From assembly GCA_934141245.1 (NCBI GenBank), contig CAKPCB010000001.1, forward strand, positions 21,259 through 85,258: 64,000 bases of DNA. The letters run 5' to 3'. Below, one piece after another: positions 2,500-56,232 of this stretch. The DNA is from an uncultured Bacilli bacterium (lineage in GTDB: Bacteria > Bacillota_I > Bacilli_A > RF39 > UBA660). The translations under genes and the position numbers were made by a program. Below the pieces are notes generated by a model. It had not been told where the DNA came from and made no database searches. It worked only from the letters and a program-made list of their open reading frames with translations. Numbering within the stretch: the stretch's first letter is position 1; each line of letters starts with the position of its first letter.

Positions 2500-2748
2500 C
2501 TATTCAAACGATGAGCAAAAGAAGTAACAATAGATTCTTTTATAGAGAGTTAGTGATTGGTGTAAACTAATAAAGATATATTGTGAATAACATTTGTGAG
2601 TGCTTAAAGAAATTAAGTAGACTAAGCCGTATATCTACGTTACAGATAAGAGTGATCAATTTTGATAACTAGGGTGGTACCGCGGATTCAACAGTTATTC
2701 GTCCCTTATGGGATGTTTAACTGTTTTTTTAATTTTAGGAGGGTAAAT
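2500..2748 (+). promoter_or_regulatory. T-box riboswitch leader (tRNA-sensing antitermination) upstream of asnS
   Basis: Canonical T-box sequence AACTAGGGTGGTACCGCGG at ~2668-2686. It is followed by a terminator hairpin (aacagtt...aactgtt with inner gtccc/gggat) and a T-run ending at ~2738. AGAGA/AGTGA-type stem I elements lie upstream, and the leader sits between the promoter and the RBS GGAGGG. Confidence 0.75.
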
Positions 2749-4131
2749 ATGTTAGATGTAAAAGATTTATATGAAAAATTAGATGAATATTTAGGCAAAG
2801 AAGTGACATTGCAAGGATGGATAAAAAATCATAGAAAACAAAAAGAATTTGGATTTATAGACTTCTCAGATGGTACATATTTTAAACATGTTCAACTAGT
2901 ATATGATAACAAATTAAGTGATTTTGATACTATTCAAAAATATCATATTGGATGTGCAATAACTGTAGTAGGAGAAGTAGTAACATCAGAAGGTGCTGGT
3001 CAAGAATTTGAAATTAAGGTAAAATCTATTAAACTAGAAGGAGATTGTCCAGAAGATTATCCAATGCAACCAAAACGTCATTCAATGGAATTTTTAAGAG
3101 AACAGGCTTATTTAAGACCAAGAGTAAATATATTTCAAGCAGTATTTCGTATAAGAAGTATTGCAGCTCAAGCAATACATGAATATTTTCAATCAAATAA
3201 TTATGTATATGTTCATACTCCATTGATAACTACTGCTGATTGTGAAGGCTCAGATCAAATGTTTAAAATAACTACACTAAATATGAATAATTTACCTAAA
3301 GATAAAGATGGTAATGTAGATATGTCAAAAGATTTATTTGGAAAAACAGCTTTTGTAACAGGTACAGGTCAATTACATGGAGAAGCTTTTGCAATGGCAT
3401 TTAAAAAGATTTATACGTTTGGACCAACTTTCAGAACAGAAAAATCAAATACAAAAACACACGCAAATGAATTTTGGATGATAGAACCAGAAATAGGATT
3501 TTGTGATTTAAATGGATTGATGGATATAGAGGAACAAATGTTAAAATTTATTGTAAATTATGTATTAGAGCATTGTAAAAATGAAATAGATTTTTTAGAT
3601 AAATTTGTTCAAAAAGGTTTAAGAGAAAAATTAGAAAAACTAGTTAATTCTAAATTTACAAGAATTACTCATCATGATGTTATAGATATATTAAAAAAAT
3701 CAGATATAAAATGGGAATTTACTCCAGATTATTCTTCTGATATTGCTAAAGAACATGAAAGATATATAACTGAATATTTTAATGGACCAGTATTTATAAC
3801 AGATTGGCCAAAAGATATAAAAGCTTGGTATATGAAAGTTAATCCAGATAATAAAACGGTTGCCGCAGTTGACTTAGAAGTTCCTGGTGCTGGAGAATTA
3901 ATGGGTGGATCACAACGTGAAGAAGATTATGATAAATTAATCAAAAGATGTAAAGAAATGGGCGTTGATTTTGACACAGTTGATTGGTTCTGTAATCTAA
4001 GAAAGTTTGGAGGATGCTATCACTCTGGATTTGGTATGGGATTTGAAAGATTATTAATTTATCTAACAGGAGTAGAAAATATTCGTGATGTAATTCCATT
4101 CCCAAGAACACCTGGATGTTGTGATTTTTAA
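2749..4131 (+). CDS. asnS: Asparagine--tRNA ligase
   Basis: True start is probably the ATG at 2749 (MLDVKDLYEK...) after RBS AGGAGGG. The ORF-track start at 2662 lies inside the T-box leader. Class IIb aaRS motifs are present: FRTE, GAGELMGGSQRE and GFGMGFERL. 461 aa, typical for AsnS. Confidence 0.9.
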   Translation: MLDVKDLYEKLDEYLGKEVTLQGWIKNHRKQKEFGFIDFSDGTYFKHVQLVYDNKLSDFDTIQKYHIGCAITVVGEVVTSEGAGQEFEIKVKSIKLEGDCPEDYPMQPKRHSMEFLREQAYLRPRVNIFQAVFRIRSIAAQAIHEYFQSNNYVYVHTPLITTADCEGSDQMFKITTLNMNNLPKDKDGNVDMSKDLFGKTAFVTGTGQLHGEAFAMAFKKIYTFGPTFRTEKSNTKTHANEFWMIEPEIGFCDLNGLMDIEEQMLKFIVNYVLEHCKNEIDFLDKFVQKGLREKLEKLVNSKFTRITHHDVIDILKKSDIKWEFTPDYSSDIAKEHERYITEYFNGPVFITDWPKDIKAWYMKVNPDNKTVAAVDLEVPGAGELMGGSQREEDYDKLIKRCKEMGVDFDTVDWFCNLRKFGGCYHSGFGMGFERLLIYLTGVENIRDVIPFPRTPGCCDF

Positions 4132-28323: not shown

Positions 28324-30570
28324 ATGAAATTTAGATTTAGAGCAGATTCACAAGATGTAATAATATTTGTAATATTTGTAATATTTTTATTATATGTAAT
28401 TTCACTTGGAGTAATTAATATACCAACATTAATTGGAGAAGGTCACTTTGTAGGACTAAATCCATTACCTGCTTTTTCAAAGGATAATATAACAGTAACT
28501 CTTGTTTTTTTCCTTTTGTTTTTAGGGGGAATAATAGCATCTGTTAGTTCATATTTCTTTGAGAGGGAAGAAGGTATTGGTTTTACAGTTGGTAAAAAAG
28601 ATAAGGGTTATTCTAGATGGGCTAAAGAAAAAGAAATTAAATCTGAATTAAAGTATGTTGATCCAACCGCACAAAAAACTAATGTTGGTGGAGTACCATT
28701 AATATTAAAAGATAATGAAATATGGGTAGATGATGGTGAATATCATAACTTAGTTATTGGTGCAACTGGTTCAGGTAAGACACAAACAGTAATTTTTCCA
28801 ACAGTTGAACTTTTAGCTAAAAACAGAGAATCAATGATTATAACTGACCCTAAGGGCGAAATATATGAAAATACCGCAAATATGCTTAGGGATAAGGGAT
28901 ATGAGATTTTATTACTTAACTTCCGTGATCCACAACAAGGTAATAGTTGGAATCCACTTACATTGCCATATGAAATTTATAAATCAGGAAATCAAGATAA
29001 AGCTATAGAGCTTTTGGATGACTTGGCTGCTAATATTTTGTATGAGGAAAACAATGGAAATGCAGATCCTTTTTGGGAAAAAACATCTGCGGACTATTTT
29101 TCTGGACTTGCACTAGGAATGTTTGAGGATGCAGAACCAGATCAAATAAATATAAATACAATAAGTTTAATGACAACCGTTGGTGAAGAAAAATGTGGCG
29201 GTTCAACATATGCTAAGGAGTATTTTAGTTATAAGGATCCAGAGTCTCCTGCTTATGTAAATGCAAGTGGTACAATTATGGCCCCAAGTGATACAAAGGG
29301 TAGTATTATTGCAGTATTTAAGCAAAAGATTAAACTTTTCGCATCACGTGAAAATTTGTCTGAAATGTTATCCTATAGTGATATAAATTTGGAATCTATT
29401 GGTGAGAAACCAACTGCTTTATTTATAGTAATACAAGATGAAAAAAAGACATATCATTCACTTGTTACAATTTTATTAAAGCAATGTTATGAAACACTTA
29501 TTAGTGTTGCACAAAAAAATGGTGGTAAATTACCTGTTAGAACAAACTTTTTGTTGGATGAGTTTGCAAATATGCCACCACTAAAAGATATTACAACAAT
29601 GATAACAGCTGCTCGTTCAAGAAGAATTAGGTTTACAATGATTATCCAAAACTTTGCGCAATTGGATCAAGTTTATGGGGATAAGAATGCTGAAACAATA
29701 CGTGGTAACTGTGGAAATATTATTTATCTTATTACAACAGAGTTAAAGGCTCTTGAGGAAATAAGTAAAATGTGTGGTGAAGTTAAATCTAAGAAAGATG
29801 ATAAAACAGCATCAACACCACTTGTTACTGTTTCGGATTTACAACGTATGAAGCAATTTGAAACAATAATTCTTAGAATACGTATGCAACCATTTAAAAC
29901 AAAATTTACACCTTATTATAAAATGAAATCTAAATTTGGAAAAGAATTTGCTAAAGCAGAATATCCTACTAGAGAAAAAAGAGAAGTAAAAGTATTTGAT
30001 ATCAGGAATTTTGTAAAGGCAAAAAAACAAGAGAAAATTAATAAAATGATGGAAGGTGGAGGTATGCCACCTAGTGGTGGAATGAACCCATTCGAATCAG
30101 GTATGCCACCAATATTTGGTGGAATGAATCCTCAAAGTATGAATGGTTCTATGCCAAGACAACGTCCACAATCTAATAGGATGCCAAATAATGATTTTAA
30201 TATTGAGGATTTAGTTAAAAAGATAGATGCAAAAATAGCTGAACTTGAAAATGAAGAAAAGCAAGAAAAAGAAAGAATAGAAAAAGATGAAAAGATAATA
30301 GAAGCTAAAATTGAATCTAAGCCAAAAGAGGTAACCGGTCCAAGAAATGAAGATATAAAAATTGATGAAAGACTTATGGAAGATAAGTTAAATAAAATAT
30401 TGAATAGTGATATAAGTAAGGTAAGTCAAGAAAAGGCATCCGAATTTAAACCAGTTAAAAAGGTAGAAGATGTAAAAGAAATTAAAGTTGAAAAGAATGA
30501 TAATCGTCCATCAATTAGTTTAGATGATATTAGTGAAGATAAATTCTTTGATGATTTCTTCGATGATTAA
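28324..30570 (+). CDS. VirD4/TraG-family type IV coupling protein (T4CP)
   Basis: Two N-terminal TM helices. Walker A VIGATGSGKTQTV. TraG/VirD4-like blocks ITDPKGE and FLLDEFANMP. Met/Pro/Gly-rich repeats and an acidic FFDDFFDD tail at the C-terminus. Confidence 0.85.
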   Translation: MKFRFRADSQDVIIFVIFVIFLLYVISLGVINIPTLIGEGHFVGLNPLPAFSKDNITVTLVFFLLFLGGIIASVSSYFFEREEGIGFTVGKKDKGYSRWAKEKEIKSELKYVDPTAQKTNVGGVPLILKDNEIWVDDGEYHNLVIGATGSGKTQTVIFPTVELLAKNRESMIITDPKGEIYENTANMLRDKGYEILLLNFRDPQQGNSWNPLTLPYEIYKSGNQDKAIELLDDLAANILYEENNGNADPFWEKTSADYFSGLALGMFEDAEPDQININTISLMTTVGEEKCGGSTYAKEYFSYKDPESPAYVNASGTIMAPSDTKGSIIAVFKQKIKLFASRENLSEMLSYSDINLESIGEKPTALFIVIQDEKKTYHSLVTILLKQCYETLISVAQKNGGKLPVRTNFLLDEFANMPPLKDITTMITAARSRRIRFTMIIQNFAQLDQVYGDKNAETIRGNCGNIIYLITTELKALEEISKMCGEVKSKKDDKTASTPLVTVSDLQRMKQFETIILRIRMQPFKTKFTPYYKMKSKFGKEFAKAEYPTREKREVKVFDIRNFVKAKKQEKINKMMEGGGMPPSGGMNPFESGMPPIFGGMNPQSMNGSMPRQRPQSNRMPNNDFNIEDLVKKIDAKIAELENEEKQEKERIEKDEKIIEAKIESKPKEVTGPRNEDIKIDERLMEDKLNKILNSDISKVSQEKASEFKPVKKVEDVKEIKVEKNDNRPSISLDDISEDKFFDDFFDD

Positions 30571-39162: not shown

Positions 39163-41058
39163 ATGCTAAATAGCATTGGCTTAACTATATCTGGCTTTGT
39201 TTTTATACTTTTAATCGCAATTGTTTATTTATCAAAGAAAAAGTATAATAATTTACAAAACGTTATATACAGATTTTTGTTATTTACAACGATAGCAGTT
39301 TTAATATTAGAATTTATATGTGTTTTTACAATGTATAATAGTGTTGAGTTTGGAAAATTAGTTATACTAAATGAGTTTTTATGCAGAATCTATATTCTAA
39401 CTTATATTGCATTATTTGTAGGAATAATAGGTTATGTAAGAAGTCTTACTATAGATAAAACTTATAATAAACCTATAGAATTTTTTCAAGAAAAATTTAT
39501 GGGTACACTAATTGTAATAGCTTCAGTTTTGTACTTTATATCTTGCTTTTTTGAATTTAAATTTACATCAGGAACTGGAATAAATAAAGTTTATGTAACT
39601 GGAGGTCTACCTGTATATGTTTTATATATTGCTTTTGCTTTTGCGGGCGTATATATGACAGTTGCTCTTTTAAAGGATATTAATAAGGAAAATGTTTCAA
39701 AAAGAGTTCCATTAATACTTTTTTTGATTATTTACTTTTTTATAGGAGTTATTCAACTATATACAATTGATATAAATGATCTTACTTATTTATTTGCTTT
39801 TAGTATAATTGCAATTTATTTTACACTTGAAAACCAAGATGTAATATTAGTAAATGAACTAGAAATAGCTAAGAGCGAAGCAGAACGTGCAGATAAAGCC
39901 AAGACAGCATTTTTATCAAAAATGTCGCATGAGATAAGAACTCCTATGAATGCAATAATGGGATTTAGTGAAACACTTCTAAATAATAATAAACTAACTA
40001 CTAAAGAGTTAAAAGAAGATGTCGGTAATATTTATAAAGCAGGTAATGATTTATTAGAAATAATTAATAATATATTAAATTTATCAAGAATTGAGTCCGG
40101 AAAAGAAAAATTGGAAAATCTTGAGTATTATATTGGTGACATAGTATTTGAACTAAATAGTTTTATATATGCAAGAATAGATAAAACCAAAGTTAAATTT
40201 ATAATTGATATTGATCAAGATATTCCATCTAAGCTACTTGGAGATAGATTAAAGATATATACAGTTTTATCAAATATTTTGGAAAATTCAGTACAATTTA
40301 CTTCAAAAGGTGAAATAAAACTTTCTATAAGATGTAAAAATGAAGGAAATATTTCGCACTTGTTATTTGAAGTGTCAGATACTGGTCAAGGAATAAAGAA
40401 AGAAGATTTTGAAAAAGTATTCAATTCATTTACTATGTCAGAAGTAACTGGAGACAATTATAGTGGAATTGGGCTAGGATTAGTTATATCAAAAAAACTT
40501 GTAGAAATGATGAATGGTACTATTTCTTTTGATAGTGAATATGGTGTTGGAACTAAGTTTTATGTAAAGATAGATCAACAAATAATTGATAAAACAGAAA
40601 TTGGTAACATTTTAAAAGAAGAAGAAATTTCTTCGAAGGTAAAAGAAAAAGAATTTTACTTTGATTGTTCTAAATATAGTGTGTTAATAGTGGATGATAA
40701 TAAATTGAATTTGAAAGTAGTTAATAGACTATTAGAACCATACAATATAAAATGTGAAAATGTAGAGAGTGGCAAAGAATGCATTGAGAAGGTAAAGTCT
40801 GGAAAGAAATATGACTTAATCTTTCTAGATCACATGATGCCAGATTTAGACGGTATTGAAACAATTAGAATATTGAAAAAAATGACAGAGAAAACTCTTC
40901 CACCTATAGTTGCCATGACAGCTAATGTTGTTACTGAATTTAGAGAAAAGTATATAAAAGAAGGGTTTGATGATTATATATCTAAACCTATTGATATAAA
41001 AAGACTTAACAAATTATTAAAAAAATACTTTTATAAAGAGAAGAAAAAGAGGAAGTAG
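39163..41058 (+). CDS. Hybrid sensor histidine kinase (6-TM sensor, HisKA, HATPase_c, C-terminal receiver)
   Basis: H-box [19 protein letters not shown]-box [13 protein letters not shown]1 DTGQGI, G2 [12 protein letters not shown]. Receiver with [11 protein letters not shown] and [13 protein letters not shown]. Confidence 0.8.
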
Positions 41059-41066
41059 GTGATTTT

Positions 41067-42920
41067 ATGTTAGGTGAGATATTAGTATCTGTTGGTGCAT
41101 TAATTTTTGCTATGCTTTTAACAGTTATATACTTTGTAAAGGCAAAGAAAACACAAGTTAATAACATATTTTATAAAATTGCATTGATTCTCATAAGTGT
41201 TACTATAGTTAGTGAATTATCTACAGTTTGTTCAATGTTCTTTTTGAAAGATATGCCTAATATAGGTAATACTTTAGCAAGAATTAATGGGTTATTAACT
41301 ATAACTTGGGTTGTTTCTATCGCTTGCTATATAGTGACACTTGGTGAGGCATATGTTAAAAAAAGTGTATTTGAATATATTAAAGAAAATAGGAATATAA
41401 AAAACATAATAATACTATATGTTATAATTGTTATTGTATACTTTTTTATAAAGTTTGATAACGTTGTTACTGATCGATATGCATACATTTCTGGACCAGC
41501 ACTGTATTATATATATATAGTTGGTGTATTTACTACAATAGTAGCAATATTAACAGTTGTTAGAAATAAAGCAAATCTTACAATTGGAAAGAGAATTCCA
41601 ATATTTGCGGGTATAGTTGAAACAATATTGTCTATGATATTTCAACTTATGTTTCCAAATGTTTTAGTTATATCGGGAAGCTTTGTGTTTAAATTATATT
41701 TGGTATATTTTATGTTTGAAAATCCAGATTTATATTTAATTGATGAACTTAATAAAGCAAAGAAAAAAGCTGAGGATTCTAACAAGGCTAAATCAGATTT
41801 CTTATCTAATATGTCACATGAAATAAGAACTCCTATGAATGCAATAATGGGATTTAGTGAGACAATACTAAATGATAAAAAAGTAAATGTAGAAAATGCA
41901 AAAAAAGATATAGAACACATTTATATAGCATCTTCTAATCTTTTAGAGATAATGAATAACATACTTGATATTTCTAGAATTGAAACTGGTGAAGAAAAAT
42001 TAGATAATAAAGATTATAGTATTGGAAATATAGTATTAGAATTAAAAAGTATAATAGACGCTAGACTTAATAATCCTAAAGTTAAATTTATTACTAATGT
42101 AGATGAAAATATTCCATCAAAATTATTTGGTGATAAAACTAAAGTTTTTCAAATATTACTTAACATATTGAGTAATTCAGTTAAATATACAGAAGTTGGT
42201 AAGATTGAACTTTATGTTACTGCAGATGTAAAAGGAAATAATGCTAATTTGCATTTTAAAGTTTCTGATACTGGCTTTGGTATAAAAGAAGAAGACTATG
42301 ATAAAATATTTGAAAAGTTTTCTAGATTAGATAATGCAACTAGGAATGAAATAGAGGGTACCGGTTTGGGACTTGTTATAACAAAAAAATTAGTTAATTT
42401 ACTAGGTGGAAAAATTTGGTTTGAAAGTCAATATGGTGCTGGTACAACATTTTATGTTGATATTACACAGCAAATTGTTGATAGTTCTAAATTAGGTAAC
42501 ATATTAACCGAAAAAGGTATAACAAGCGAAAGAAATTATCTTGATTGTTCAAAATATAAAGTTTTAATTGTAGATGATAATAAATTGAATTTGAAAGTTG
42601 CAGAAAAAATTCTTACTCCATATAAATTTTCAATCACTACATTAAACGGAGGAAGGGAATGTGTAGATAATATCAAAGAGGGTAATAAATATGACATGAT
42701 TTTTCTAGATCATATGATGCCAGAATTAGATGGAATTGAAGTTTTACATATATTAGAAAAATTAGATAGTTATGACATTCCACCAGTTGTTGCATTAACA
42801 GCAAACGCAATAACAGGAATGAAAGAAATGTATTTAAATGAAGGGTTTGATGAGTATTTAGCAAAACCTATAAATATAAGTGAACTTGATAAAATCATAA
42901 ATAAGTATTTTAAGAAATAA
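41067..42920 (+). CDS. Hybrid sensor histidine kinase, tandem paralogue of the preceding gene
   Basis: Same architecture as the preceding kinase, with near-identical H-box [18 protein letters not shown] and receiver [11 protein letters not shown]...[12 protein letters not shown]. The N-terminal 6-TM domain is divergent but colinear. Confidence 0.8.
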
Positions 42921-43298
42921 ATGGAGGTTATAAAGATGGAAAATAAAATGGAATTTTTAAAACAAAATGGAATGGATATGGATTCAGCATTATCATATTT
43001 AGGTGACTATGAAACTATTGATGAAATAATTAGAGATTTTTATGATGGTTTAGATTCACAATTACAGCAATTAGAAGATTTGAAAAATCAAAAAGATATG
43101 GCAAATTATGCAATATATGTACATGCATTAAAAAGTAATTACAGATCTTTAGGATTAAAAGAATATGCGGAAGATGCTTATCAACATGAATTACAGAGTA
43201 AGGCAAATAATATAGAATTTGTAGAAAATAATTTCAACACTTTAATTAATGATAAAGAAAGAATTAAAAGAATAATAGAAAAATATAAAACTATGTAA
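42921..43298 (+). CDS. Hpt (histidine phosphotransfer) domain protein
   Basis: 125 aa, starting 1 nt after the kinase stop. Hpt consensus HALKSNYRSLG (HxxKGxxxxxG with the phospho-accepting His). Confidence 0.6.
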   Translation: MEVIKMENKMEFLKQNGMDMDSALSYLGDYETIDEIIRDFYDGLDSQLQQLEDLKNQKDMANYAIYVHALKSNYRSLGLKEYAEDAYQHELQSKANNIEFVENNFNTLINDKERIKRIIEKYKTM

Positions 43299-43311
43299 AA
43301 GGGGACTGTGT

Positions 43312-44883
43312 ATGATTGATGAAAACATTAAACTAATACATTCTGAAATTTTGAATTGCTTTAACAGTATACATGTAATTAACATTGATTTGGATAAAGT
43401 GTATACATATAATATCATTGATGGAAAAATAAATAATACTAGCTCTGTCTCATTTTTTGATTTTATGCAAGATATATCATCAAAAATAGAACCAAATGAT
43501 GTAAATGGATATTTTGATAGTATTTCTGCAAATAAAATAGAGAAAAATAATGGAGTTGTTGTATATAACTATAAAATTAAGGAAAATGATAAATATAAAA
43601 AGTGCATAAATATTTCTAAACTTATAACAAATCAATATGGAAAAATAGTTATATCAGCATCAATGTATGACAATTCTATTGATCATGAAAACACTGAATT
43701 AAATGATTTAAAAGCTAAATTTTCAAATGTAACAAATAGAGTTTCAGATATTATATTAAAGGTATTTAATGCATTGGATTCAAATTCACTTAATATGAAT
43801 ACTAGTAATTATATAACTACATTACTTCAAGAATTAGTAAAAGAATTTCCTGATTTTGATAAAGAACTTGAAAAAAATATGATATCTCAAGTTAGCAAAA
43901 CACAAAATGCATTATTAATAGTCGATGATGATCCAATGACTAGAAATTTAATTAAGAAAACTTTTAATGACAAGTATGAAATAATAATGGCAACTAATGG
44001 AAAAGAAGCAATGGAAACTTTAGATAGAATTGGATTTGATAATATAGTTGGTATATTTCTTGATTTAATGATGCCAGTTGTTGATGGTTTTGCAGTGCTA
44101 GAGTATTTAAGAAATAAGAACGTATTATCAAGAATACCCGTTATAATAATAAGCGGTACTGAAGAAAAAGAAACAAGACAAAAAGTTTACAAGTATAATA
44201 TTGCAGATTTACTAGAAAAACCATTTAATCTTGATATAATCAAATATAGAACTAAAAATTTAATAAATTTATACAAAACAAGCAATGCATTAAACAATAT
44301 GGTTTTTTCACAACACAATGATTTAATGTCTATTATAAAAGAAATTGAGAAGTCATATAAATATGATAATAAATCTGATTTTGATAACATTAAAAAATAT
44401 TTTGATATTATCATAAAACAAGTTTTAAGTGATTGGCCAGAGTATAGACTTTCTGACTATGAAATAAATAATATAAAGAAATCAATTGAATTTTATAACA
44501 TAGGTCTTTACTTATTACCTAGATATTTAGGAAAAAATGGAAATATATCAAAAGAAGAAGTTGAAATAATAAAGAAACATCCTATTTTAGGTAGTAAAAT
44601 AGTAAGTAAGATATTAATTACTACAAAGGATGAAGATTTAATTGATTGTGCCACTAAATTAACTAGTATGTGTTATGAAAGATATGATGGAAGTGGATAT
44701 CCTGAGGGTATTAGTGGAGATAACATTCCATTTTGGATACAATGTGTATCTTTATCTATAGATATTAATATAGCTTTAAAGCAAAATATAGACATGAATG
44801 TATTTATTCAAAAATCATCAGCCAAATATAATCCAAAGATAATTGATAGTTTAAAAAAAGTAATAGAGCAACTAAAAAGATAA
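43312..44883 (+). CDS. Response regulator: unknown N-terminal domain + receiver + HD-GYP-like (apparently degenerate) output domain
   Basis: Receiver ALLIVDDDPMTRN and FLDLMMPVVDG. C-terminal ERYDGSGYPEG is the GYP signature. The HD position reads YNIG and HHE reads CYE, suggesting loss of the catalytic metal ligands. Confidence 0.7.
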   Translation: MIDENIKLIHSEILNCFNSIHVINIDLDKVYTYNIIDGKINNTSSVSFFDFMQDISSKIEPNDVNGYFDSISANKIEKNNGVVVYNYKIKENDKYKKCINISKLITNQYGKIVISASMYDNSIDHENTELNDLKAKFSNVTNRVSDIILKVFNALDSNSLNMNTSNYITTLLQELVKEFPDFDKELEKNMISQVSKTQNALLIVDDDPMTRNLIKKTFNDKYEIIMATNGKEAMETLDRIGFDNIVGIFLDLMMPVVDGFAVLEYLRNKNVLSRIPVIIISGTEEKETRQKVYKYNIADLLEKPFNLDIIKYRTKNLINLYKTSNALNNMVFSQHNDLMSIIKEIEKSYKYDNKSDFDNIKKYFDIIIKQVLSDWPEYRLSDYEINNIKKSIEFYNIGLYLLPRYLGKNGNISKEEVEIIKKHPILGSKIVSKILITTKDEDLIDCATKLTSMCYERYDGSGYPEGISGDNIPFWIQCVSLSIDINIALKQNIDMNVFIQKSSAKYNPKIIDSLKKVIEQLKR

Positions 44884-44925: not shown

Positions 44926-47040
44926 TTGACTTACTATATTTATAAATGTAAGGAGGTGAGATTAATAAGGCGTTATGAATGCGTCTATCAGGAATGTGAA
45001 AATGATTGTGCAGTTGCAGCACTCTTAACTATTATTAAAACTTATGGTGGTAGAGTTTCGAAAGAATATTTGAGAGTTTTGACAAATACAAGTAAAACTG
45101 GTACTAATGCTTATTATATATTAGAAGCAGCAAAGTACTTAGGTTTTGATACAAGGGCATTAACTGGAAATGTTAAAAATTTAAAGAAAACTATGCTTCC
45201 TTGTATAGCACACGTTATTTTAGAATCAAAATATAAGCATTTCGTTGTTATACATAGCATTGGTAATAATAGTATTGTAATCGCGGATCCATCAAAAGGA
45301 ATATTAAAAATGAGTATAGAGGAGTTTCAAAAGATAAGTACAAGTAATTATTTAATATTAATACCTAAAAAACAGCTCCCATACATTAAAGATGATAAAA
45401 CCTTAATAATTAATATAAAAGAATATATTTACAAAAATAAAAAAATAATTATTAGTATATTATTCTTTTCGATTGTTTATACTTTTATTAATATTTTAAC
45501 ATCATATGGATTTCAATTTGTAATAGAAGATTCTATTAACATACAATCAAAGAACAATTTATATTTTATAATTATATTGTTACTAGTATTATCCTTTATG
45601 AAACATTTAACAGATTTTGTAAGATTTAACTTGTTTAATTATATAAATCACAAATTAGATTTTTTACTTACTATAGATGTATTTAAACACTTATTATCAC
45701 TTCCTTATCAATATTATAAAACCAGAACAAGAGGAGATATTATATTTAGAATTAATGATTTAAGTAATATTAGACAGTCTTTATCCAATATTTTTATGTG
45801 TATTTTTGTTGATGGGTTATTAGCGGTATTCATGTTTATTTCATTATTAAAAATAAATAAATACCTAAGTGCTTTGTCACTAATTGTAATAGTTTTATAC
45901 TATTTTGTTATTAAAACATTTTCATATCCAAATAGTATTAATTTATTAGAAAGTAAAAAAAGTGCATCTAGTATTAATAATGACTTTATTGAAACACTTA
46001 CTTCGATTGATACAATTAAAAACTTAAAACTAGAAGAAGAGTTTAAAGATAAAATAAATGACTCTTATCTAAACTATTTAAGAAAGAGTTTTAACTTTAA
46101 TAAGACAATTAATATAGAAATCTTATTTAAAAATTTAATTGATAGTTTTGGAAAGTATTTTATATTATTTTTAGGTAGCATATTCGTGTTAAAAGAAGAA
46201 ATAACATTAACACAACTAATAACATATAATTCATTAATTATATATTTTTTAGAACCTATAAAAAATATTATTAATTTAGATGTTGATATTAAAAATATGA
46301 AAATATCGATAAAGAGAATAATAGAATTGTATAACGTTGGTAAAGAATTTAATAAAATAGATGAAAAATATACAAATAAAGAACTAATTGGAAATATAAA
46401 AATTAATGATTTAAATTATTCTTATAATGGTCGGAATAAAGTATTAAATAAAGTTAATTTAGATATTAAATCAGGTGAAAAAATATTTATTTGTGGAAAT
46501 AGTGGAAGTGGAAAGAGTACACTAGTGAAAATATTAATGAAGTATTTAAATGTTGAAAATGAAAAAGTATTATTAGATGATAAAGACATAAATAATTATA
46601 ATATTTTAGAAATAAGGCGTGACATTTGTTATGTATCACAAAATGAATCATTATTTACAGATTCAATATATAATAATATTATTTTAAATAGAAACATTGA
46701 TTACGATTCATTTTTATCTATTTGTAAAAAACTTGGAATTGACAAAATAGCAAATAAAAATATAAACGGATATAATATGACTTTGGAAGAAAATGGATTT
46801 AATTTAAGTGGTGGAGAAAGACAAAGAATTATAATGGCTAGAGCATTACTAAAAAATAGTAGTATATATATTTTTGATGAAAGTTTAAGTCAAATTGATA
46901 TAGAATCAGAAAGAAATATACTAGGCAAAATATTTAAACTTTATAGTAATAAAACAATTATAATGATATCCCATAGATTTGATAATCAAGACTTGTTTGA
47001 CAAAAGCTATAAACTAGAAGGAGGGATATTATATAACTGA
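44926..47040 (+). CDS. Bacteriocin-processing ABC exporter with N-terminal C39 peptidase domain (LagD/ComA-like)
   Basis: C39 motif YQECENDCAVAALLTIIKTYGG (Cys active site) and downstream His region HFVVIH. 6-TM domain. Walker A GNSGSGKST, signature LSGGERQRIIMARAL, Walker B IYIFDES. The true start may be the GTG at 44957 after RBS AAGGAGG. Confidence 0.85.
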   Translation: MTYYIYKCKEVRLIRRYECVYQECENDCAVAALLTIIKTYGGRVSKEYLRVLTNTSKTGTNAYYILEAAKYLGFDTRALTGNVKNLKKTMLPCIAHVILESKYKHFVVIHSIGNNSIVIADPSKGILKMSIEEFQKISTSNYLILIPKKQLPYIKDDKTLIINIKEYIYKNKKIIISILFFSIVYTFINILTSYGFQFVIEDSINIQSKNNLYFIIILLLVLSFMKHLTDFVRFNLFNYINHKLDFLLTIDVFKHLLSLPYQYYKTRTRGDIIFRINDLSNIRQSLSNIFMCIFVDGLLAVFMFISLLKINKYLSALSLIVIVLYYFVIKTFSYPNSINLLESKKSASSINNDFIETLTSIDTIKNLKLEEEFKDKINDSYLNYLRKSFNFNKTINIEILFKNLIDSFGKYFILFLGSIFVLKEEITLTQLITYNSLIIYFLEPIKNIINLDVDIKNMKISIKRIIELYNVGKEFNKIDEKYTNKELIGNIKINDLNYSYNGRNKVLNKVNLDIKSGEKIFICGNSGSGKSTLVKILMKYLNVENEKVLLDDKDINNYNILEIRRDICYVSQNESLFTDSIYNNIILNRNIDYDSFLSICKKLGIDKIANKNINGYNMTLEENGFNLSGGERQRIIMARALLKNSSIYIFDESLSQIDIESERNILGKIFKLYSNKTIIMISHRFDNQDLFDKSYKLEGGILYN

Positions 47041-47041
47041 A

Positions 47042-47458
47042 ATTGTTAATTATAATTCTATTTATAAGCATGATTTTTCTTTAGCAAGAATCTGGTTTTG
47101 GTTTATAATTATTGTATTTATTATAAGCTTTGTAATTTTTAAAAATATAAAATATTATGTATACTTTAGTGATTATGGTATTGTAACAGAAGAAGGTAAT
47201 ATAAAGATATCAATTAATAAGGCTGATTTAAATAAAATTGTTAATAATACTCAAATAAAAATAAATAATAAATATTTTGCTTACACAATTAAGAGTATTA
47301 ATGAAAGTTTAGATTCAATAAATAATAAGGTAGAAATTATATTAGAAGTTAAGTTGCCAACTAATATTAAAGTTAAAAATAATATATTAGAGTTTAAAAT
47401 ATTACTCAGTGATAAGACCATTTTAGAATATATTGTACATAAGATAGGAGAATTATGA
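47042..47458 (+). CDS. Membrane-anchored protein encoded by an ORF without canonical ATG/GTG start (possible bacteriocin accessory or immunity protein)
   Basis: Hand translation in the frame ending at the TGA at 47456-47458 is stop-free from ~46967. It encodes ...ARIWFWFIIIVFIISFVIFKNIKYYVYFSDYGIVTEEGNIKISINKADLNK...ILEYIVHKIGEL, a TM helix plus a ~100 aa domain. A GGAGGG RBS lies at 47022-47027. Its stop overlaps the ATG of the first GG-leader peptide (ATGA). It is absent from the ORF track; the frame contains in-frame TTG codons at 46979 and 46997 but no in-frame ATG/GTG. Confidence 0.4.
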   Translation: MVNYNSIYKHDFSLARIWFWFIIIVFIISFVIFKNIKYYVYFSDYGIVTEEGNIKISINKADLNKIVNNTQIKINNKYFAYTIKSINESLDSINNKVEIILEVKLPTNIKVKNNILEFKILLSDKTILEYIVHKIGEL

Positions 47459-47592
47459 GTGAATTAAAAAAAGAACAATTAATGAAAATAGAGGGTGGAA
47501 TGTCAACTTGGGCTGCTATAGGAATAGGTGCCGGAATTGTATTCTTGATAGGGGTACTAGATGGATTTTTTAGACCATTGAAATGTAATTAA
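47455..47592 (+). CDS. Double-glycine-leader bacteriocin precursor peptide A (class II, GxxxG-type)
   Basis: 45 aa: MSELKKEQLMKIEGG | MSTWAAIGIGAGIVFLIGVLDGFFRPLKCN. The leader ends in GG with the LxxIxGG pattern recognised by C39 peptidases. The mature peptide is hydrophobic with a GIGAG (GxxxG) motif. It is shorter than any ORF reported in the track. Confidence 0.6.
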   Translation: MSELKKEQLMKIEGGMSTWAAIGIGAGIVFLIGVLDGFFRPLKCN

Positions 47593-47601
47593 GGAGGATG
47601 C

Positions 47602-47769
47602 ATGAGAGAAATAAATATAAAAGATTTAAGTCTTATCGAGGGAGGTATGAATGTATCGGGGACTTTAATTAATGCATTAACATCAGGTATAAAAATTATA
47701 CTTGAGGTTGGAAGATGCTTGGGTTCCGTAATAAGAAGGGGAAGCAATGGTGATGTTTGTAAAATATGA
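47602..47769 (+). CDS. Double-glycine-leader bacteriocin precursor peptide B
   Basis: 55 aa: MREINIKDLSLIEGG | MNVSGTLINALTSGIKIILEVGRCLGSVIRRGSNGDVCKI. RBS AAGGAGGA lies 4 nt upstream. The GG leader matches peptide A in pattern. The mature part has two Cys. Confidence 0.6.
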   Translation: MREINIKDLSLIEGGMNVSGTLINALTSGIKIILEVGRCLGSVIRRGSNGDVCKI

Positions 47770-47924
47770 TGGATAGAATAATTAGAATCAATAAAAGAAA
47801 TTTAAAAGATACTAAAACACTGTTGTATATGATGCTTCTAACACTTTTATCAATTACTATTTTACTAATTGCATTTAATATAGGAACATATTTAGGTTCA
47901 TATTTACAATGTGTTTTTAATTAA
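47766..47924 (+). CDS. Small membrane peptide (52 aa), candidate immunity protein
   Basis: MMDRIIRINKRNLKDTKTLLYMMLLTLLSITILLIAFNIGTYLGSYLQCVFN. One TM helix. Its ATG overlaps the stop of peptide B (ATGA). A strong terminator follows. Confidence 0.4.
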   Translation: MMDRIIRINKRNLKDTKTLLYMMLLTLLSITILLIAFNIGTYLGSYLQCVFN

Positions 47925-47929
47925 TAAAA

Positions 47930-47972
47930 AGCATGATATATAATCACAGTAATTATATCATGCTCTTTTATA
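47930..47972 (+). terminator. Rho-independent terminator closing the bacteriocin locus
   Basis: ~11-bp stem agcatgatata/tatatcatgct with a 13-nt loop, followed by CTTTT. A TTGAAA-16-TATAAT promoter for ftsA follows. Confidence 0.6.
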
Positions 47973-52764: not shown

Positions 52765-53271
52765 ATGAACAATAATAGGAAAAAACTTAACGTTATAATT
52801 ATTGTATTATCAGTTATGATATTATTTATGGGAGTTGGCTATTCTATTCTTGCTACAAGATTGAGTATAAAAGGTGTCGCAAAGACAACCGGTAAATGGC
52901 AAATTGAGATAGTGGGAATAGAACCCATTGAAAATAATACTAGTGCAGTATCAAGAGATGCAAAAATCATAAATCCAACAACTGTTGAATTTATTTCTGA
53001 TTTATATGCACCAGGTGATTATATACAATATAAAATTACTATTGCTAATAGTGGAAATATAGATGCAAAACTTTCATCTATTCAAGAAGTTATATCAAAT
53101 AAATATGAATATGTTAAATTTAGCACTAATGCAGAAGAAAACTTTGTTTTAGAGTCTAATGCTAAGCAAGAGTTAATAGTTACAATAGAATTTGAAAAAG
53201 ATGCACAAGAAGTTCCACAAGAGGTAATTACTTCAAATTATATTTTAAATTTAACCTATGTACAAAAATAG
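52765..53271 (+). CDS. Small secreted/anchored protein with weak resemblance to TasA/camelysin (peptidase M73) family
   Basis: N-terminal K-rich hydrophobic signal MNNNRKKLNVIIIVLSVMILFMGVGYSILA. LYAPGDYIQYKITIANSGNIDAKL resembles the LKPGDSVKKEFLLQNSGSL block of CalY/TasA. It is shorter than typical family members, so the assignment is tentative. Confidence 0.45.
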   Translation: MNNNRKKLNVIIIVLSVMILFMGVGYSILATRLSIKGVAKTTGKWQIEIVGIEPIENNTSAVSRDAKIINPTTVEFISDLYAPGDYIQYKITIANSGNIDAKLSSIQEVISNKYEYVKFSTNAEENFVLESNAKQELIVTIEFEKDAQEVPQEVITSNYILNLTYVQK

Positions 53272-53317
53272 CTATAGAACTTATCTCTATAGCTATTTTT
53301 TTAAATAAATTTTAATC

Positions 53318-53872
53318 TTATTCAAATGTTGTAGTTATTTCATCTGACATTAATCCGTTATCATTCAACCATTTAGCAAAGTAATTCATAATTTTATATT
53401 TTGTTAAATTACTCATGTTAGAGTCATCTTTGTATGAGATGCAACTTAATTTATTATTATTGTCATAGAATGTAATTTTTCCATTATTATCAATTTTATA
53501 TCGAATAGTTACTAATTTGTTTTTATAACTTAATTTTAAATTGTTTAAAGAGTTTTCTGATTCAAATTCAATATAATAGTTTTCTGGATTTTGAGTATAA
53601 GGACTTATAAGTAATAAATAACCAGAAACACATATTCCACTCAAGCATACAAATATAAGCTCAATATTGAAATTCAATATTGAAGGGATGAGCCCTATTA
53701 GTGATGCAATAAAAATTATAATCATTATAACAATACCAATAATCCCTTTTTTATCAAATTTAAGCTTAATTTTCCCATTCACTAGTTTAATACCTAATGC
53801 TATTCCAACAATGTTTACCATTTTATTATAGTTAGTATAACATAAAAGTTTTGTTATCGCATTAAAATGCAA
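53318..53872 (-). CDS. Hypothetical membrane protein
   Basis: 184 aa with two adjacent TM helices in the first half and a hydrophilic C-terminal domain. Confidence 0.5.
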   Translation of the reverse strand: MHFNAITKLLCYTNYNKMVNIVGIALGIKLVNGKIKLKFDKKGIIGIVIMIIIFIASLIGLIPSILNFNIELIFVCLSGICVSGYLLLISPYTQNPENYYIEFESENSLNNLKLSYKNKLVTIRYKIDNNGKITFYDNNNKLSCISYKDDSNMSNLTKYKIMNYFAKWLNDNGLMSDEITTTFE

Positions 53873-53928
53873 AAAATGACAAGATGTACAAGTAATTTTT
53901 GCTTGTATTTATTGTCATTTTATTTATC

Positions 53929-55104
53929 TCAATCAAGTTTTAGCTTTTTAACTTTAGTATTATTATACCTATTATAAGACTCTCTTACATATTCTTCCAT
54001 AATTGTAATTTTAGATTCTATGTCTTCAACTAGTTTTAATTGATTTCTAGCTCTATCTAAATTATGATTATCATAACTAGTTTTAAAGTATGTATCTTTA
54101 TTTAGATAATCATCTAAAAATCTAATAGCAAGTTCAAGTGTTATTACTCTTACAGAATTTGCCATATTATTGACTTCTAACTCATTTAAATAAGGGGCCA
54201 TTTCACTTAGGTAACCATCGGTATATGCTTTGAAAAGTTCCATATTAATAGACACTTTAGATAAATCAGTTTCATCTTCACTTGCAGTTGATGTAGCACT
54301 TCTTATACCATCGCCATAATCATATAAACCTGAGCCTTTCATTACGGTATCTAAGTCTATAACCGCTATTGGTTTTCCTGTTTTAGGATCCATTAATACA
54401 TTATTAACTTTTGTATCGTTATGAGTTACTCTGTATGGAATCATATTTGTATCTAATAAATCTGTTATAGAACAACATACATCTTTCCTTTTTATTATTT
54501 TGTCTATTTCAGCTTTTGCAAATTTATTCCTCAACACAGGATCTAATTTACAGGTTTCTATAAAGTTTTCATATCTTTTTTTAGTGTTGTGAAAGTTTTC
54601 TATAGTATCTTCAAGCATATCTATTGGATAATCTCTTAATACTTTTCCAAAATGTCCAAAGGCTTTTCCTGTATTAAATACAACTGAACTATCCAATGAA
54701 ACATTATATGAAACAGTATCATCTATATAATTATAAATTCTATAGTATTCTTTATGAGAAAATAAGTCTTCATCAACATAAAGGGATGAACCATCTTTTG
54801 TCTTTATAACACTTATAACTTCCTTAGATTCAGTATCATTATCCTTTATATACTTTGTCACATTTTCAATATTTTTCATCAGTTTAAAAGGTTCTTTAAA
54901 TGCTCTAGTATTTATTTTTTGAAGTAAATATTTGATTATTTCTCCATCATTATTTACACTTATAACATATGTATTATTTATTATTCCACTACTTATAACA
55001 TCGATACTAAATATATCTCCCTTTATATCAAAATTATCTATTATTTTAATTAATCTAGTATAATCATTTAGCATATCTATAACCCTCCATAAATATATTA
55101 TCAT
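53929..55104 (-). CDS. Phosphotransferase (APH/ChoK/CotS-like kinase fold) family protein
   Basis: Catalytic loop VTHNDTKVNNVLMD (HxDxxxxN) and metal-binding IAVIDLDTV (DxD). The family includes spore coat CotS-type kinases. Confidence 0.7.
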   Translation of the reverse strand: MIIYLWRVIDMLNDYTRLIKIIDNFDIKGDIFSIDVISSGIINNTYVISVNNDGEIIKYLLQKINTRAFKEPFKLMKNIENVTKYIKDNDTESKEVISVIKTKDGSSLYVDEDLFSHKEYYRIYNYIDDTVSYNVSLDSSVVFNTGKAFGHFGKVLRDYPIDMLEDTIENFHNTKKRYENFIETCKLDPVLRNKFAKAEIDKIIKRKDVCCSITDLLDTNMIPYRVTHNDTKVNNVLMDPKTGKPIAVIDLDTVMKGSGLYDYGDGIRSATSTASEDETDLSKVSINMELFKAYTDGYLSEMAPYLNELEVNNMANSVRVITLELAIRFLDDYLNKDTYFKTSYDNHNLDRARNQLKLVEDIESKITIMEEYVRESYNRYNNTKVKKLKLD

Positions 55105-55185
55105 TAATTAATTTTTTAAGCAATTTATGTTAGAGTAACACTAAACATAGGTGTAATTATATAATATAAAAGCAAAAGATAAATT

Positions 55186-56232
55186 CTAAATTTTTTGCCA
55201 TTTTAGTTTTTTCATTATTCTCTTTATATTTTTAAACTCATCGCTTATAAAAGTCATTTCATTATTTAACAATTCTTTCTCAATATTATTACCAGTTAAA
55301 GATGAAATTTTCTTTAAATAAAAGAGTGCTTTTTCTGGATCTTTTTCATAAATTGAAAACAAATCTAATCCTACTAAATATGAAAATGCATCTGACACTA
55401 ATTCGCCTTTTTCGTTATCATCAATATAATTTGACATTATAGTTTTAGCAGTAACAACAAAATTATTAAAGTCACAATATATAGTTTGACTAAATAAATC
55501 CTCTTTAAATATTTTTTTACTTAGATAATCGGTTATAAAGTTTGCAAAATATCCCTCTGATTCACAATATATGTTTGAAGGGCTTTTATTAAAATTACTA
55601 TTTTCATATTTTCTTATGTATGAATGAAAGAATTCATGAATAATGCATAGTATGTCAATCACACTGTTATTTCTAAATATTGCTATGTATGGAATATTAT
55701 TATTAAAATCAACTGTACAAATTCCATGAATTGGGTTTATGTTATATTTGTTGAATACTATATTTGTTTGATTACTTGAATAAAAAAGCTTTTTAAACTC
55801 ATTCAAAATCTCTTTGCTTGGTATTTGAGCAATTATTTCCTCAGCAATACTTATAATATCATCATTACTTAATTTAATAGCTAATTTATAATAATTAGTA
55901 TCTATAACATCAATGTTATTAATTTTGCCTAATTTGTTTTTTAATAATACTAGTGCATCAGAATTTAGATTAGGAAATTTATATTCATAGGATTCATCAT
56001 CATAATCCGTGTAGCAACTAACAGTTCTATTAATGTCATATGCCGAAAATAAAGTTTCATAAAATGCTTTAGTACTGCTTAATAAATCTTGATTATTTAA
56101 AATGTTTGGATTTTTAAGATCCATATTCATTTGATTACGAATAGCTTTTATATTCCATCTATATTTATTCATAAATCCCCCTAAATATTTGAGATTATTG
56201 ATTATTATATTTGTGTTGTAATTATATGTCAA
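55186..56232 (-). CDS. Hypothetical protein with HExxH zinc-metallopeptidase motif
   Basis: ILCIIHEFFHSYI contains HEFFH, with a Glu further downstream. No signal peptide. Confidence 0.5.
   Translation of the reverse strand: MTYNYNTNIIINNLKYLGGFMNKYRWNIKAIRNQMNMDLKNPNILNNQDLLSSTKAFYETLFSAYDINRTVSCYTDYDDESYEYKFPNLNSDALVLLKNKLGKINNIDVIDTNYYKLAIKLSNDDIISIAEEIIAQIPSKEILNEFKKLFYSSNQTNIVFNKYNINPIHGICTVDFNNNIPYIAIFRNNSVIDILCIIHEFFHSYIRKYENSNFNKSPSNIYCESEGYFANFITDYLSKKIFKEDLFSQTIYCDFNNFVVTAKTIMSNYIDDNEKGELVSDAFSYLVGLDLFSIYEKDPEKALFYLKKISSLTGNNIEKELLNNEMTFISDEFKNIKRIMKKLKWQKI

Follow-up and report, generated by a model that had tools for sequence, protein, structure and literature searches.

A five-gene operon in a 64,000-nt stretch of DNA from an uncultured Bacilli bacterium (contig CAKPCB010000001.1; the whole stretch is called the window below) probably encodes a two-peptide bacteriocin of the class IIb type. 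The genes specify, in this order, a peptidase-containing ATP-binding cassette (ABC) exporter (PCAT), a previously unannotated accessory protein, two peptide precursors with double-glycine leaders (A and B) and a small candidate immunity protein (C), and the operon ends in an intrinsic terminator (Table 1). A search for homologous double-glycine-leader peptides, suggested in a preliminary description of the window, recovered the three peptide genes, arranged in this order, at more than 80 loci of anaerobic metagenomes. The operon thereby represents a family of putative two-peptide bacteriocins that is widespread in anaerobic Clostridia-type bacteria but has so far not been characterised, with at least 148 metagenome loci in human gut, rumen-type, digester and sediment samples.

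Table 1. Positions in the window of the genes, peptide segments and terminator of the operon (aa, amino acids; TM, transmembrane)
Feature	Position	Strand	Description
PCAT exporter, 704 aa	44926..47040	+	C39 peptidase, ABC membrane domain and ATPase
Accessory gene, 141 codons, unannotated	47033..47458	+	N-terminal TM helix and predicted beta-barrel; apparent ATA start
Peptide A precursor, 45 aa	47455..47592	+	Leader and predicted mature peptide
Peptide A leader, 15 residues	47455-47499	+	Double-glycine type, MSELKKEQLMKIEGG
Predicted mature A, 30 aa	47500-47589	+	Hydrophobic, MSTWAAIGIGAGIVFLIGVLDGFFRPLKCN, 3167.8 Da
Peptide B precursor, 55 aa	47602..47769	+	Leader and predicted mature peptide
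Peptide B leader, 15 residues	47602-47646	+	Double-glycine type, MREINIKDLSLIEGG
Predicted mature B, 40 aa	47647-47766	+	Cationic amphipathic, MNVSGTLINALTSGIKIILEVGRCLGSVIRRGSNGDVCKI, 4158.9 Da
Peptide C, 52 aa, candidate immunity protein	47766..47924	+	Basic N-terminus, one TM helix, short B-like tail NIGTYLGSYLQC
Intrinsic terminator hairpin	47924..47971	+	U-rich tail, operon end; -15.1 kcal/mol, z = -4.67

Coding status and conservation of the three peptides

The coordinates and translations of the three small open reading frames (ORFs) given in the preliminary description were reproduced. The ORFs had been reported as missing from the ORF track; they are indeed absent from it, but only because of its length cutoff, and public gene callers already call all three. 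Identical copies of A, B and C occur on 131, 115 and 69 contigs, respectively, of NCBI, ENA and Logan assemblies, where they are annotated as proteins without a name. A Shine-Dalgarno (SD)-like AGGAG at 47446-47450 precedes A, and the strong ribosome binding site reported for B corresponds to AAGGAGG at 47591-47597. Genes A and B lie on the same strand, 9 nt apart, and the stop of B and the start of C share 4 nt (ATGA, 47766-47769), as had been described. The terminator proposed to follow C was recovered as a hairpin that stands out against shuffled sequences. A hairpin with a T-run, unrelated in sequence, lies 3' of C in about 15 diverged loci, which indicates a structurally conserved terminator.

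At the base composition of the window (27% G+C), the chance that a random frame stays open over 45, 55 and 52 codons is 0.011, 0.004 and 0.006, respectively. The double-glycine-leader pattern occurs in only two of the 240 small ORFs (30–120 aa) of the 64-kb window, which are A and B. Substitutions were counted against a relative that is about 90% identical in DNA (L021), giving ratios of synonymous to non-synonymous changes of 6:1 for A, 11:2 for B and 7:4 for C; the same comparison yielded 73:22 for the ABC exporter and 42:13 for ftsA in the flanks. By codon position, the changes number 1, 0 and 7 in A, 3, 1 and 11 in B and 4, 1 and 8 in C. Mature A has a Kyte-Doolittle hydropathy over 19 residues, KD(19), of 2.13 and a charge of +1, and is hydrophobic enough for a membrane span, and mature B has a hydrophobic moment of 0.73 and a charge of +3. 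In C, a single hydrophobic segment covers residues 19-37 (KD(19) 2.57), and the net charge of the first 15 residues averages +2.5 among the C variants. No solved structures related to A or B were found.

Family-wide conservation was assessed by a scan of JGI metagenomes with the alignment of A. The scan yielded 148 loci, and 80 of them were retained; the counts below refer to 57 distinct A, 56 distinct B and 44 distinct C sequences. The double-glycine leaders claimed for both peptides are a property of the whole family, since the leader ends in GG in 56/57 A and 56/56 B sequences, with a modal length of 15 residues. Position -4 is occupied by Ile, Val or Leu in all A and in 54/56 B variants, position -7 by Leu in 52/57 and 44/56, and position -8 by Glu or Asp in 48/57 and 49/56, respectively. 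Position -12 is Leu, Ile or Met (or Val) in all variants of both peptides.

The mature parts are similarly constrained. Mature A spans 29–32 aa and contains IG[VI][IVL]DG..RP[LY].C in 57/57 variants; mature B spans 38–41 aa and contains G[RK]..G[STN] in 56/56, and the motif G...G[STN] is found in C in 44/44. A GxxxG-type motif had been described in A; in the mature peptide, G18xxxG22 (IGVLDG) is invariant, but G8xxxG12 is not conserved. All three proteins keep essentially a single Cys near the C-terminus, within the last four residues of A (57/57) and B (56/56) and the last five of C (41/44). The two Cys described in B are present in the window, but recur only in its own lineage and in L027, the other 54 of 56 variants having a single C-terminal Cys, which rules out an intramolecular disulfide in B as a feature of the family.

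Dissection of the 80 kept loci with hidden Markov models (HMMs) identified 37 complete sets of accessory gene, A, B and C, the remainder being mostly cut by contig ends. Conservation of the peptides at the protein level extends down to about 50% identity. Relatives in which B (55 aa) is 60–69% identical have the same order of exporter, accessory gene, A (45 aa), B (55 aa) and C (53–59 aa). Their upstream genes differ, and in L030 the module occupies another chromosomal site, beside rpsU. Among the loci with sufficient room on the contig, A is directly followed by B in essentially every case and neither was seen alone, a C39 ABC exporter lies upstream of the peptides in 53/55, and C is kept by synteny in 53/69. 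By gene order, the conserved unit is thus exporter - accessory - A - B - C - terminator. No relatives of the module were found on plasmids or viral contigs, and an origin from a mobile element was rejected on this basis.

A variant arrangement was observed in two loci, L098 (4316-4453, 4519-4656) and L099 (1029-1166, 1232-1369), where a third double-glycine-leader peptide follows B. Its core carries a C-type LGRRIGTYF, and a separate hydrophobic ORF of 45 aa comes next, which could be the immunity gene in a three-peptide form of the system.

Several annotation differences concern these same genes. ENA and Logan calls on short contigs (P0010, P0016, P0049) read TGA as Trp, giving a 59-aa B ending in CKIWWIE and an accessory protein (P0049) ending in GELWVN. 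Genetic code 4 was rejected because table 11 leaves the long ORFs unbroken, with TGG as the codon for Trp; code 4 is sometimes applied in public annotation to short AT-rich contigs of the organism. In L001, L006 and L010 (6312-6470), C is intact and identical, yet uncalled. The ftsA start lies 19 nt further downstream in these three loci than in seven others, which points to an indel in their spacer between C and ftsA; L021 has an 18-nt insertion in this spacer.

The exporter and its putative accessory protein

The exporter matches the Pfam domains Peptidase_C39 (2.9e-34), ABC_membrane (3.3e-31) and ABC_tran (7.5e-27), and aligns over its full length with PCAT1 of Clostridium thermocellum (4ry2, E = 3.6e-104) and with ComA of Streptococcus (2.6e-91). 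The catalytic motifs are in register, with the Cys in NDCA versus TDCG, the His in KHFVVIHSI versus AHFVVIYSI and the Asp in IADP versus VADP. As for these two transporters, cleavage after the GG and export are predicted. Work on PCAT1 has used one substrate of 90 aa and no accessory protein, whereas the present exporter would handle two short substrates and has an accessory protein. When species-representative genomes were scanned with the exporter, the only matches were unrelated ABC transporters of at most 31% identity.

Gene callers begin the exporter at TTG 44926. A strong SD sequence, AAGGAGGTGA, is located at 44950-44959 and is followed by an in-frame ATA at 44965, which coincides with the initiator Met of the relatives. 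The codon at this place is ATA in the window, L024, L025 and L028, and ATG in L022, L027 and L030; in L024, L025 and L028, the callers choose an ATG seven codons further downstream. Alignment and spacing both indicate that ATA 44965 is likely to be the true start. The G+C content drops to 19–21% across the exporter (window 45000-47500), compared with 25–34% in the flanks, which may reflect the composition of a membrane protein or a foreign origin.

The peptide genes had been placed immediately downstream of the exporter, but this does not hold, since the 415-nt gap before A contains an intact gene of 141 codons. The overlap of this gene is 8 nt with the stop of the ABC gene and 4 nt with the start of A. 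The frame comprises 146 open codons and is without ATG, GTG or TTG for 107 codons past an SD-coupled ATA at 47033. No gene caller annotates the gene in ten strains, and the frame is intact in all of these and in L021. In more distant relatives, the accessory protein is a called gene product of 138–147 aa, the ATG of which aligns exactly with ATA 47033, and a normal start is present in each of the 45 other distinct accessory genes. This ATA sits 7 nt after AAGGAGGG, and the geometry with the 8-nt overlap of the exporter stop is the same in L024. From alignment and spacing, ATA 47033 appears to be the sole candidate start that is consistent with the initiator Met of the relatives. The apparent ATA start explains why gene callers miss the gene; together with the SD-coupled ATA of the exporter in four lineages, this is of wider use.

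Both proteins show similarity, below the curated cutoffs, to a pair described in Mycoplasma. The exporter matches NF045998 (Mbov_0121 family C39 ABC transporter; 4.2e-85) with 286 bits against a cutoff of 500, and the accessory protein matches nearly the whole profile of NF045999 (MAG1140 family) with 22.5–22.7 bits against a cutoff of 35. Seven of 21 accessory homologues match NF045999, at best with 5.1e-6, so that the accessory protein is, at the profile level, only a remote relative of the MAG1140 family. These likenesses, all of them below cutoff, suggest the same module of exporter and small partner; no published function was found for the Mbov_0121/MAG1140 pair. We infer that the accessory protein serves the exporter as a pared-down accessory or adaptor.

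Comparison with known bacteriocins and alternative readings

Class IIb loci of the lactococcin G type combine two peptides, an immunity protein, an ABC transporter and an accessory protein in one operon (PMC2850506). Both preforms carry a double-glycine leader of 15–30 residues, the dedicated ABC transporter has a leader-cleaving peptidase domain, and GxxxG motifs have been proposed to drive the helix-helix pairing of the two peptides in target membranes (PMC2850506). Every feature of such loci that can be examined in the DNA was found here, with C as a candidate for the immunity protein, which supports the two-peptide reading put forward in the preliminary description. GxxxG motifs in particular occur in both peptides, as IGxxDG in A (57/57) and as G[RK]xxG[STN] in B (56/56).

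Comparison with family models gave a graded picture. Peptide A scores 28.1 bits against the NCBIfam class IIb model TIGR03949 (lactobin A/cerein 7B family), above the cutoff of 21.5, and is by this measure a member of the family. All seven tested relatives of A match the model, as does, weakly, one of ten B sequences; B is not a member by the same measure. For Pfam PF10439 (Bacteriocin_IIc), A scores 20.6 bits, below the gathering threshold of 27.1, and B has no match. Among the models for lactococcin G and enterocin 1071 (NF038034/NF038035), A reaches 13.8 bits against NF038034, far below its cutoff of 37. Its relatives attain E-values of about 6e-5 at best with each of the two models, and no score at the cutoff was seen.

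Lactococcin G-type operons resemble the present one in having the same five functional parts in one operon, 15-residue double-glycine leaders, GxxxG in both peptides and adjacent peptide genes followed by the immunity gene, for which C is the candidate here. They differ in gene order, as the exporter comes first here, and in the sequences of the peptide cores, which are unrelated. The accessory protein has about 140 aa, with a TM helix and one predicted beta-barrel, whereas the HlyD-type accessory protein of lactococcin G-type systems has roughly 450 aa, and candidate C has one TM helix, whereas LagC has four.

Immunity proteins of small size with a single TM segment include CbnZ (42 aa), BrcI (53 aa), EnkIaz (52 aa) and AbpIM (55 aa), and for CbnZ, immunity and an N-in/C-out orientation were shown experimentally (PMC6957408). 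The earlier designation of C as a candidate immunity peptide agrees with its size, position and predicted topology, which match those of proven small immunity proteins. In carnobacteriocin XY/CbnZ, brochocin C/BrcI and ABP-118/AbpIM, the immunity gene likewise comes right after the peptide pair, and the distribution of charges is also the same as in C. The likeness is one of layout, no sequence similarity having been found, and C has a tail that resembles its own partner B, a feature that is not known to be reported for CbnZ, BrcI and AbpIM.

The C-terminal hallmark of A, IGVIDGxxRPLKCN, and the signature motifs were found in no searchable paper text, a comparison that did not extend to the IIBacFinder supplements, and the hallmark was not found in the accessible part of the Hungate1000 class IIb supplement. 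Mining studies have reported thousands of double-glycine precursors in gut Clostridia (PMC12648112), and one more such family is therefore unsurprising. The unusual details are the mini accessory protein, the apparent ATA starts and the B-like immunity candidate.

If the operon encodes a class IIb-type bacteriocin, pre-A and pre-B would be recognised through their 15-residue leaders, the C39 domain would cut after Gly15 and the transporter would export the mature peptides, probably assisted by the membrane-anchored accessory protein. Mature A would be long enough to span the membrane and mature B would form a cationic amphipathic helix, and the two would pack helix-to-helix via the invariant GxxxG in the target membrane, causing it to leak. 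C would reside in the membrane of the producer with its N-terminus inside and shield the cell. The predicted mature sequences and masses are precise enough for direct synthesis. As the producer lives in the human gut and the operon is apparently fixed in the species, the peptides may shape competition among gut Clostridia.

A number of observations weigh against a class IIb bacteriocin. B and C, like the accessory protein, can be assigned to no described family. The match of A to TIGR03949 covers only the leader and the first, glycine-rich part of the core (residues 2-33), and B, with 14.6 bits against a cutoff of 15.7 for TIGR01847, is recognised only through its leader. A phmmer search of C against 1.84 billion representatives returned only C itself, its relatives being found by synteny only. 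The exporter scores 455.1 bits against NCBIfam TIGR01193, below the cutoff of 523.85; despite this score it is expected to work like a PCAT, as it has the domain architecture and catalytic motifs of one. Unlike the HlyD/membrane-fusion-type accessory proteins of class II bacteriocin exporters (LcnD, ComB type), neither the accessory protein of the window nor any of 21 homologues gave an HlyD match in Pfam or NCBIfam, and the resemblance of its predicted beta-barrel to membrane-fusion proteins is based on moderate structural matches. Finally, the module was present at 7/7 places that were chosen via ftsA rather than via the peptides and looks fixed in the species, contigs of which come from Hadza, Nepali and other human-gut cohorts. 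Such fixation, combined with strong purifying selection on the mature peptides and their high conservation across environments, is less typical of strain-variable bacteriocin loci.

The B-like tail of C was compared with B at the level of the family. The last approximately 27 residues of C align with the last approximately 27 of mature B, both ending at the conserved Cys, and the shared segment reads [hydrophobic]4-x-[LFM]-G-x-x-x-G-[ST]-x-[IV]-R...Cys. With hhalign, C versus mature B gave P = 4.3e-6 in the first, small alignments and 5.2e-8 (95% probability) in large ones, whereas the controls were non-significant or marginal (mature A versus C, 0.66; mature A versus mature B, 0.41; reversed, 0.066 and 0.023). 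Shuffle tests of cognate B-C pairs yielded z = 6.4 and 8.7 in two lineages, about 2.5 in four and a non-significant 1.1 in the window, so that the resemblance holds for the family and not for the window pair alone. Cognate pairs do not exceed non-cognate ones in similarity (21.97 versus 21.99, p = 0.51), which does not support pair-specific co-evolution or gene conversion; the resemblance is an old, family-wide one rather than the result of recent gene conversion. In L098 and L099, the C-type segment is preceded by a GG leader and not by a TM anchor; B-like and C-like forms therefore interconvert.

The similarity suggests that C could protect by presenting the same surface as B, that is, by partner mimicry. 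As a membrane-anchored decoy of B, C would capture A, or block the receptor site of B, in the membrane of the producer, and the toxic A-B pair would thereby be kept from forming. Since A, B and C each keep one C-terminal Cys, a disulfide-linked A-B heterodimer as the toxin and a mixed disulfide between C and A are conceivable. This decoy model, with its disulfides included, is rather doubtful, and no description of bacteriocin immunity by such mimicry was found in the literature.

A and B could instead be two independent one-peptide (class IId-type) bacteriocins, or one toxin with a helper or inducer, which share an exporter and an immunity gene. Outside the leader, mature A and mature B are dissimilar (the hhalign P of 0.41 given above), and TIGR03949 includes one-peptide members such as cerein 7B. 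This reading is improbable given that B directly follows A in essentially all loci with room and neither is seen alone, that an invariant GxxxG and one Cys at the C-terminus are retained in both, and that there is only one small immunity candidate for the pair.

The peptides could also act on the population of the producer itself, for instance as membrane-active factors in sporulation or cannibalism, or in cell-envelope or division physiology. Such a role would agree with the apparent fixation, with the strong conservation of the mature peptides, with the position of the module in the division and cell wall (dcw) cluster of the window and its closest relatives (SpoVD and MraY upstream, ftsA and ftsZ downstream), and with an apparent spore former as host (SpoVD above cutoff; CotZ in L028). 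Outside this clade the position is not kept, however, as only 7 of 53 wider loci have ftsA downstream and the L030 module is found beside rpsU, and all parts fit the bacteriocin paradigm, the immunity-like gene included. We give this self-directed role a small chance.

It is very improbable that A, B or both are quorum-sensing pheromones (ComC/BlpC-like) for the adjacent phosphorelay. The phosphorelay genes, for two hybrid kinases, Hpt and an HD-domain response regulator (RR-HD), lie immediately upstream in the same orientation and are closely spaced, and A has weak, sub-threshold matches to the EntF and ComC inducer models. These matches are confined to the leader, and the mature peptides are 30–40 aa long, with a core that is either TM-like or strongly amphipathic. 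The output domain of the regulator is HD rather than the DNA-binding LytTR, the kinases are hybrid HisKA rather than AgrC/HPK10 proteins, and the phosphorelay is not upstream in L022, L024, L025, L027 or L030, nor in any of 36 wider loci. Chance open frames in AT-rich intergenic DNA, for which nothing speaks beyond the small size of the ORFs, are refuted by the low open-frame probabilities, the third-position substitution bias and the protein-level conservation in more than 80 loci.

Genomic neighbourhood

Upstream of the module and on the same strand, the window encodes SpoVD, MraY, the two hybrid histidine kinases, the Hpt protein and the RR-HD protein, and ftsA, ftsZ and ftsK follow downstream. 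The phosphorelay genes between mraY and the module (39163-44883, + strand) comprise tandem paralogous hybrid kinases, Hpt and a response regulator with an HD_5 output, and they lie within an apparent dcw cluster. With the RR-HD gene upstream in 0/36 wider loci, a link of the phosphorelay genes to the module was rejected, and the low frequency of ftsA downstream likewise led to the rejection of a general ftsA link and makes the dcw position clade-specific. The kinases and ftsA are thus neighbours in this clade only and not part of the system. In L028 and L029, a 119-aa gene and an RR-HD_5 gene lie upstream of the exporter.

No NCBIfam model matches, at E <= 1e-5, any of the four ORFs located after ftsK (52765-56232; 168, 183, 390 and 347 aa). 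At 28324-30570 on the + strand, a VirD4-like coupling protein (CD1115 family; 307.7 bits versus a cutoff of 250) suggests an integrated conjugative element approximately 15–20 kb upstream of the module. A T-box leader was identified at 2502-2709 on the + strand (137.9 bits, E = 1.3e-30), and together with MraY and the SpoVD match above cutoff, it suggests a spore-forming member of the Bacillota. The T-box overlaps the TTG start (2662) of a 489-aa ORF (2662-4131), the real start of which is therefore probably further downstream.

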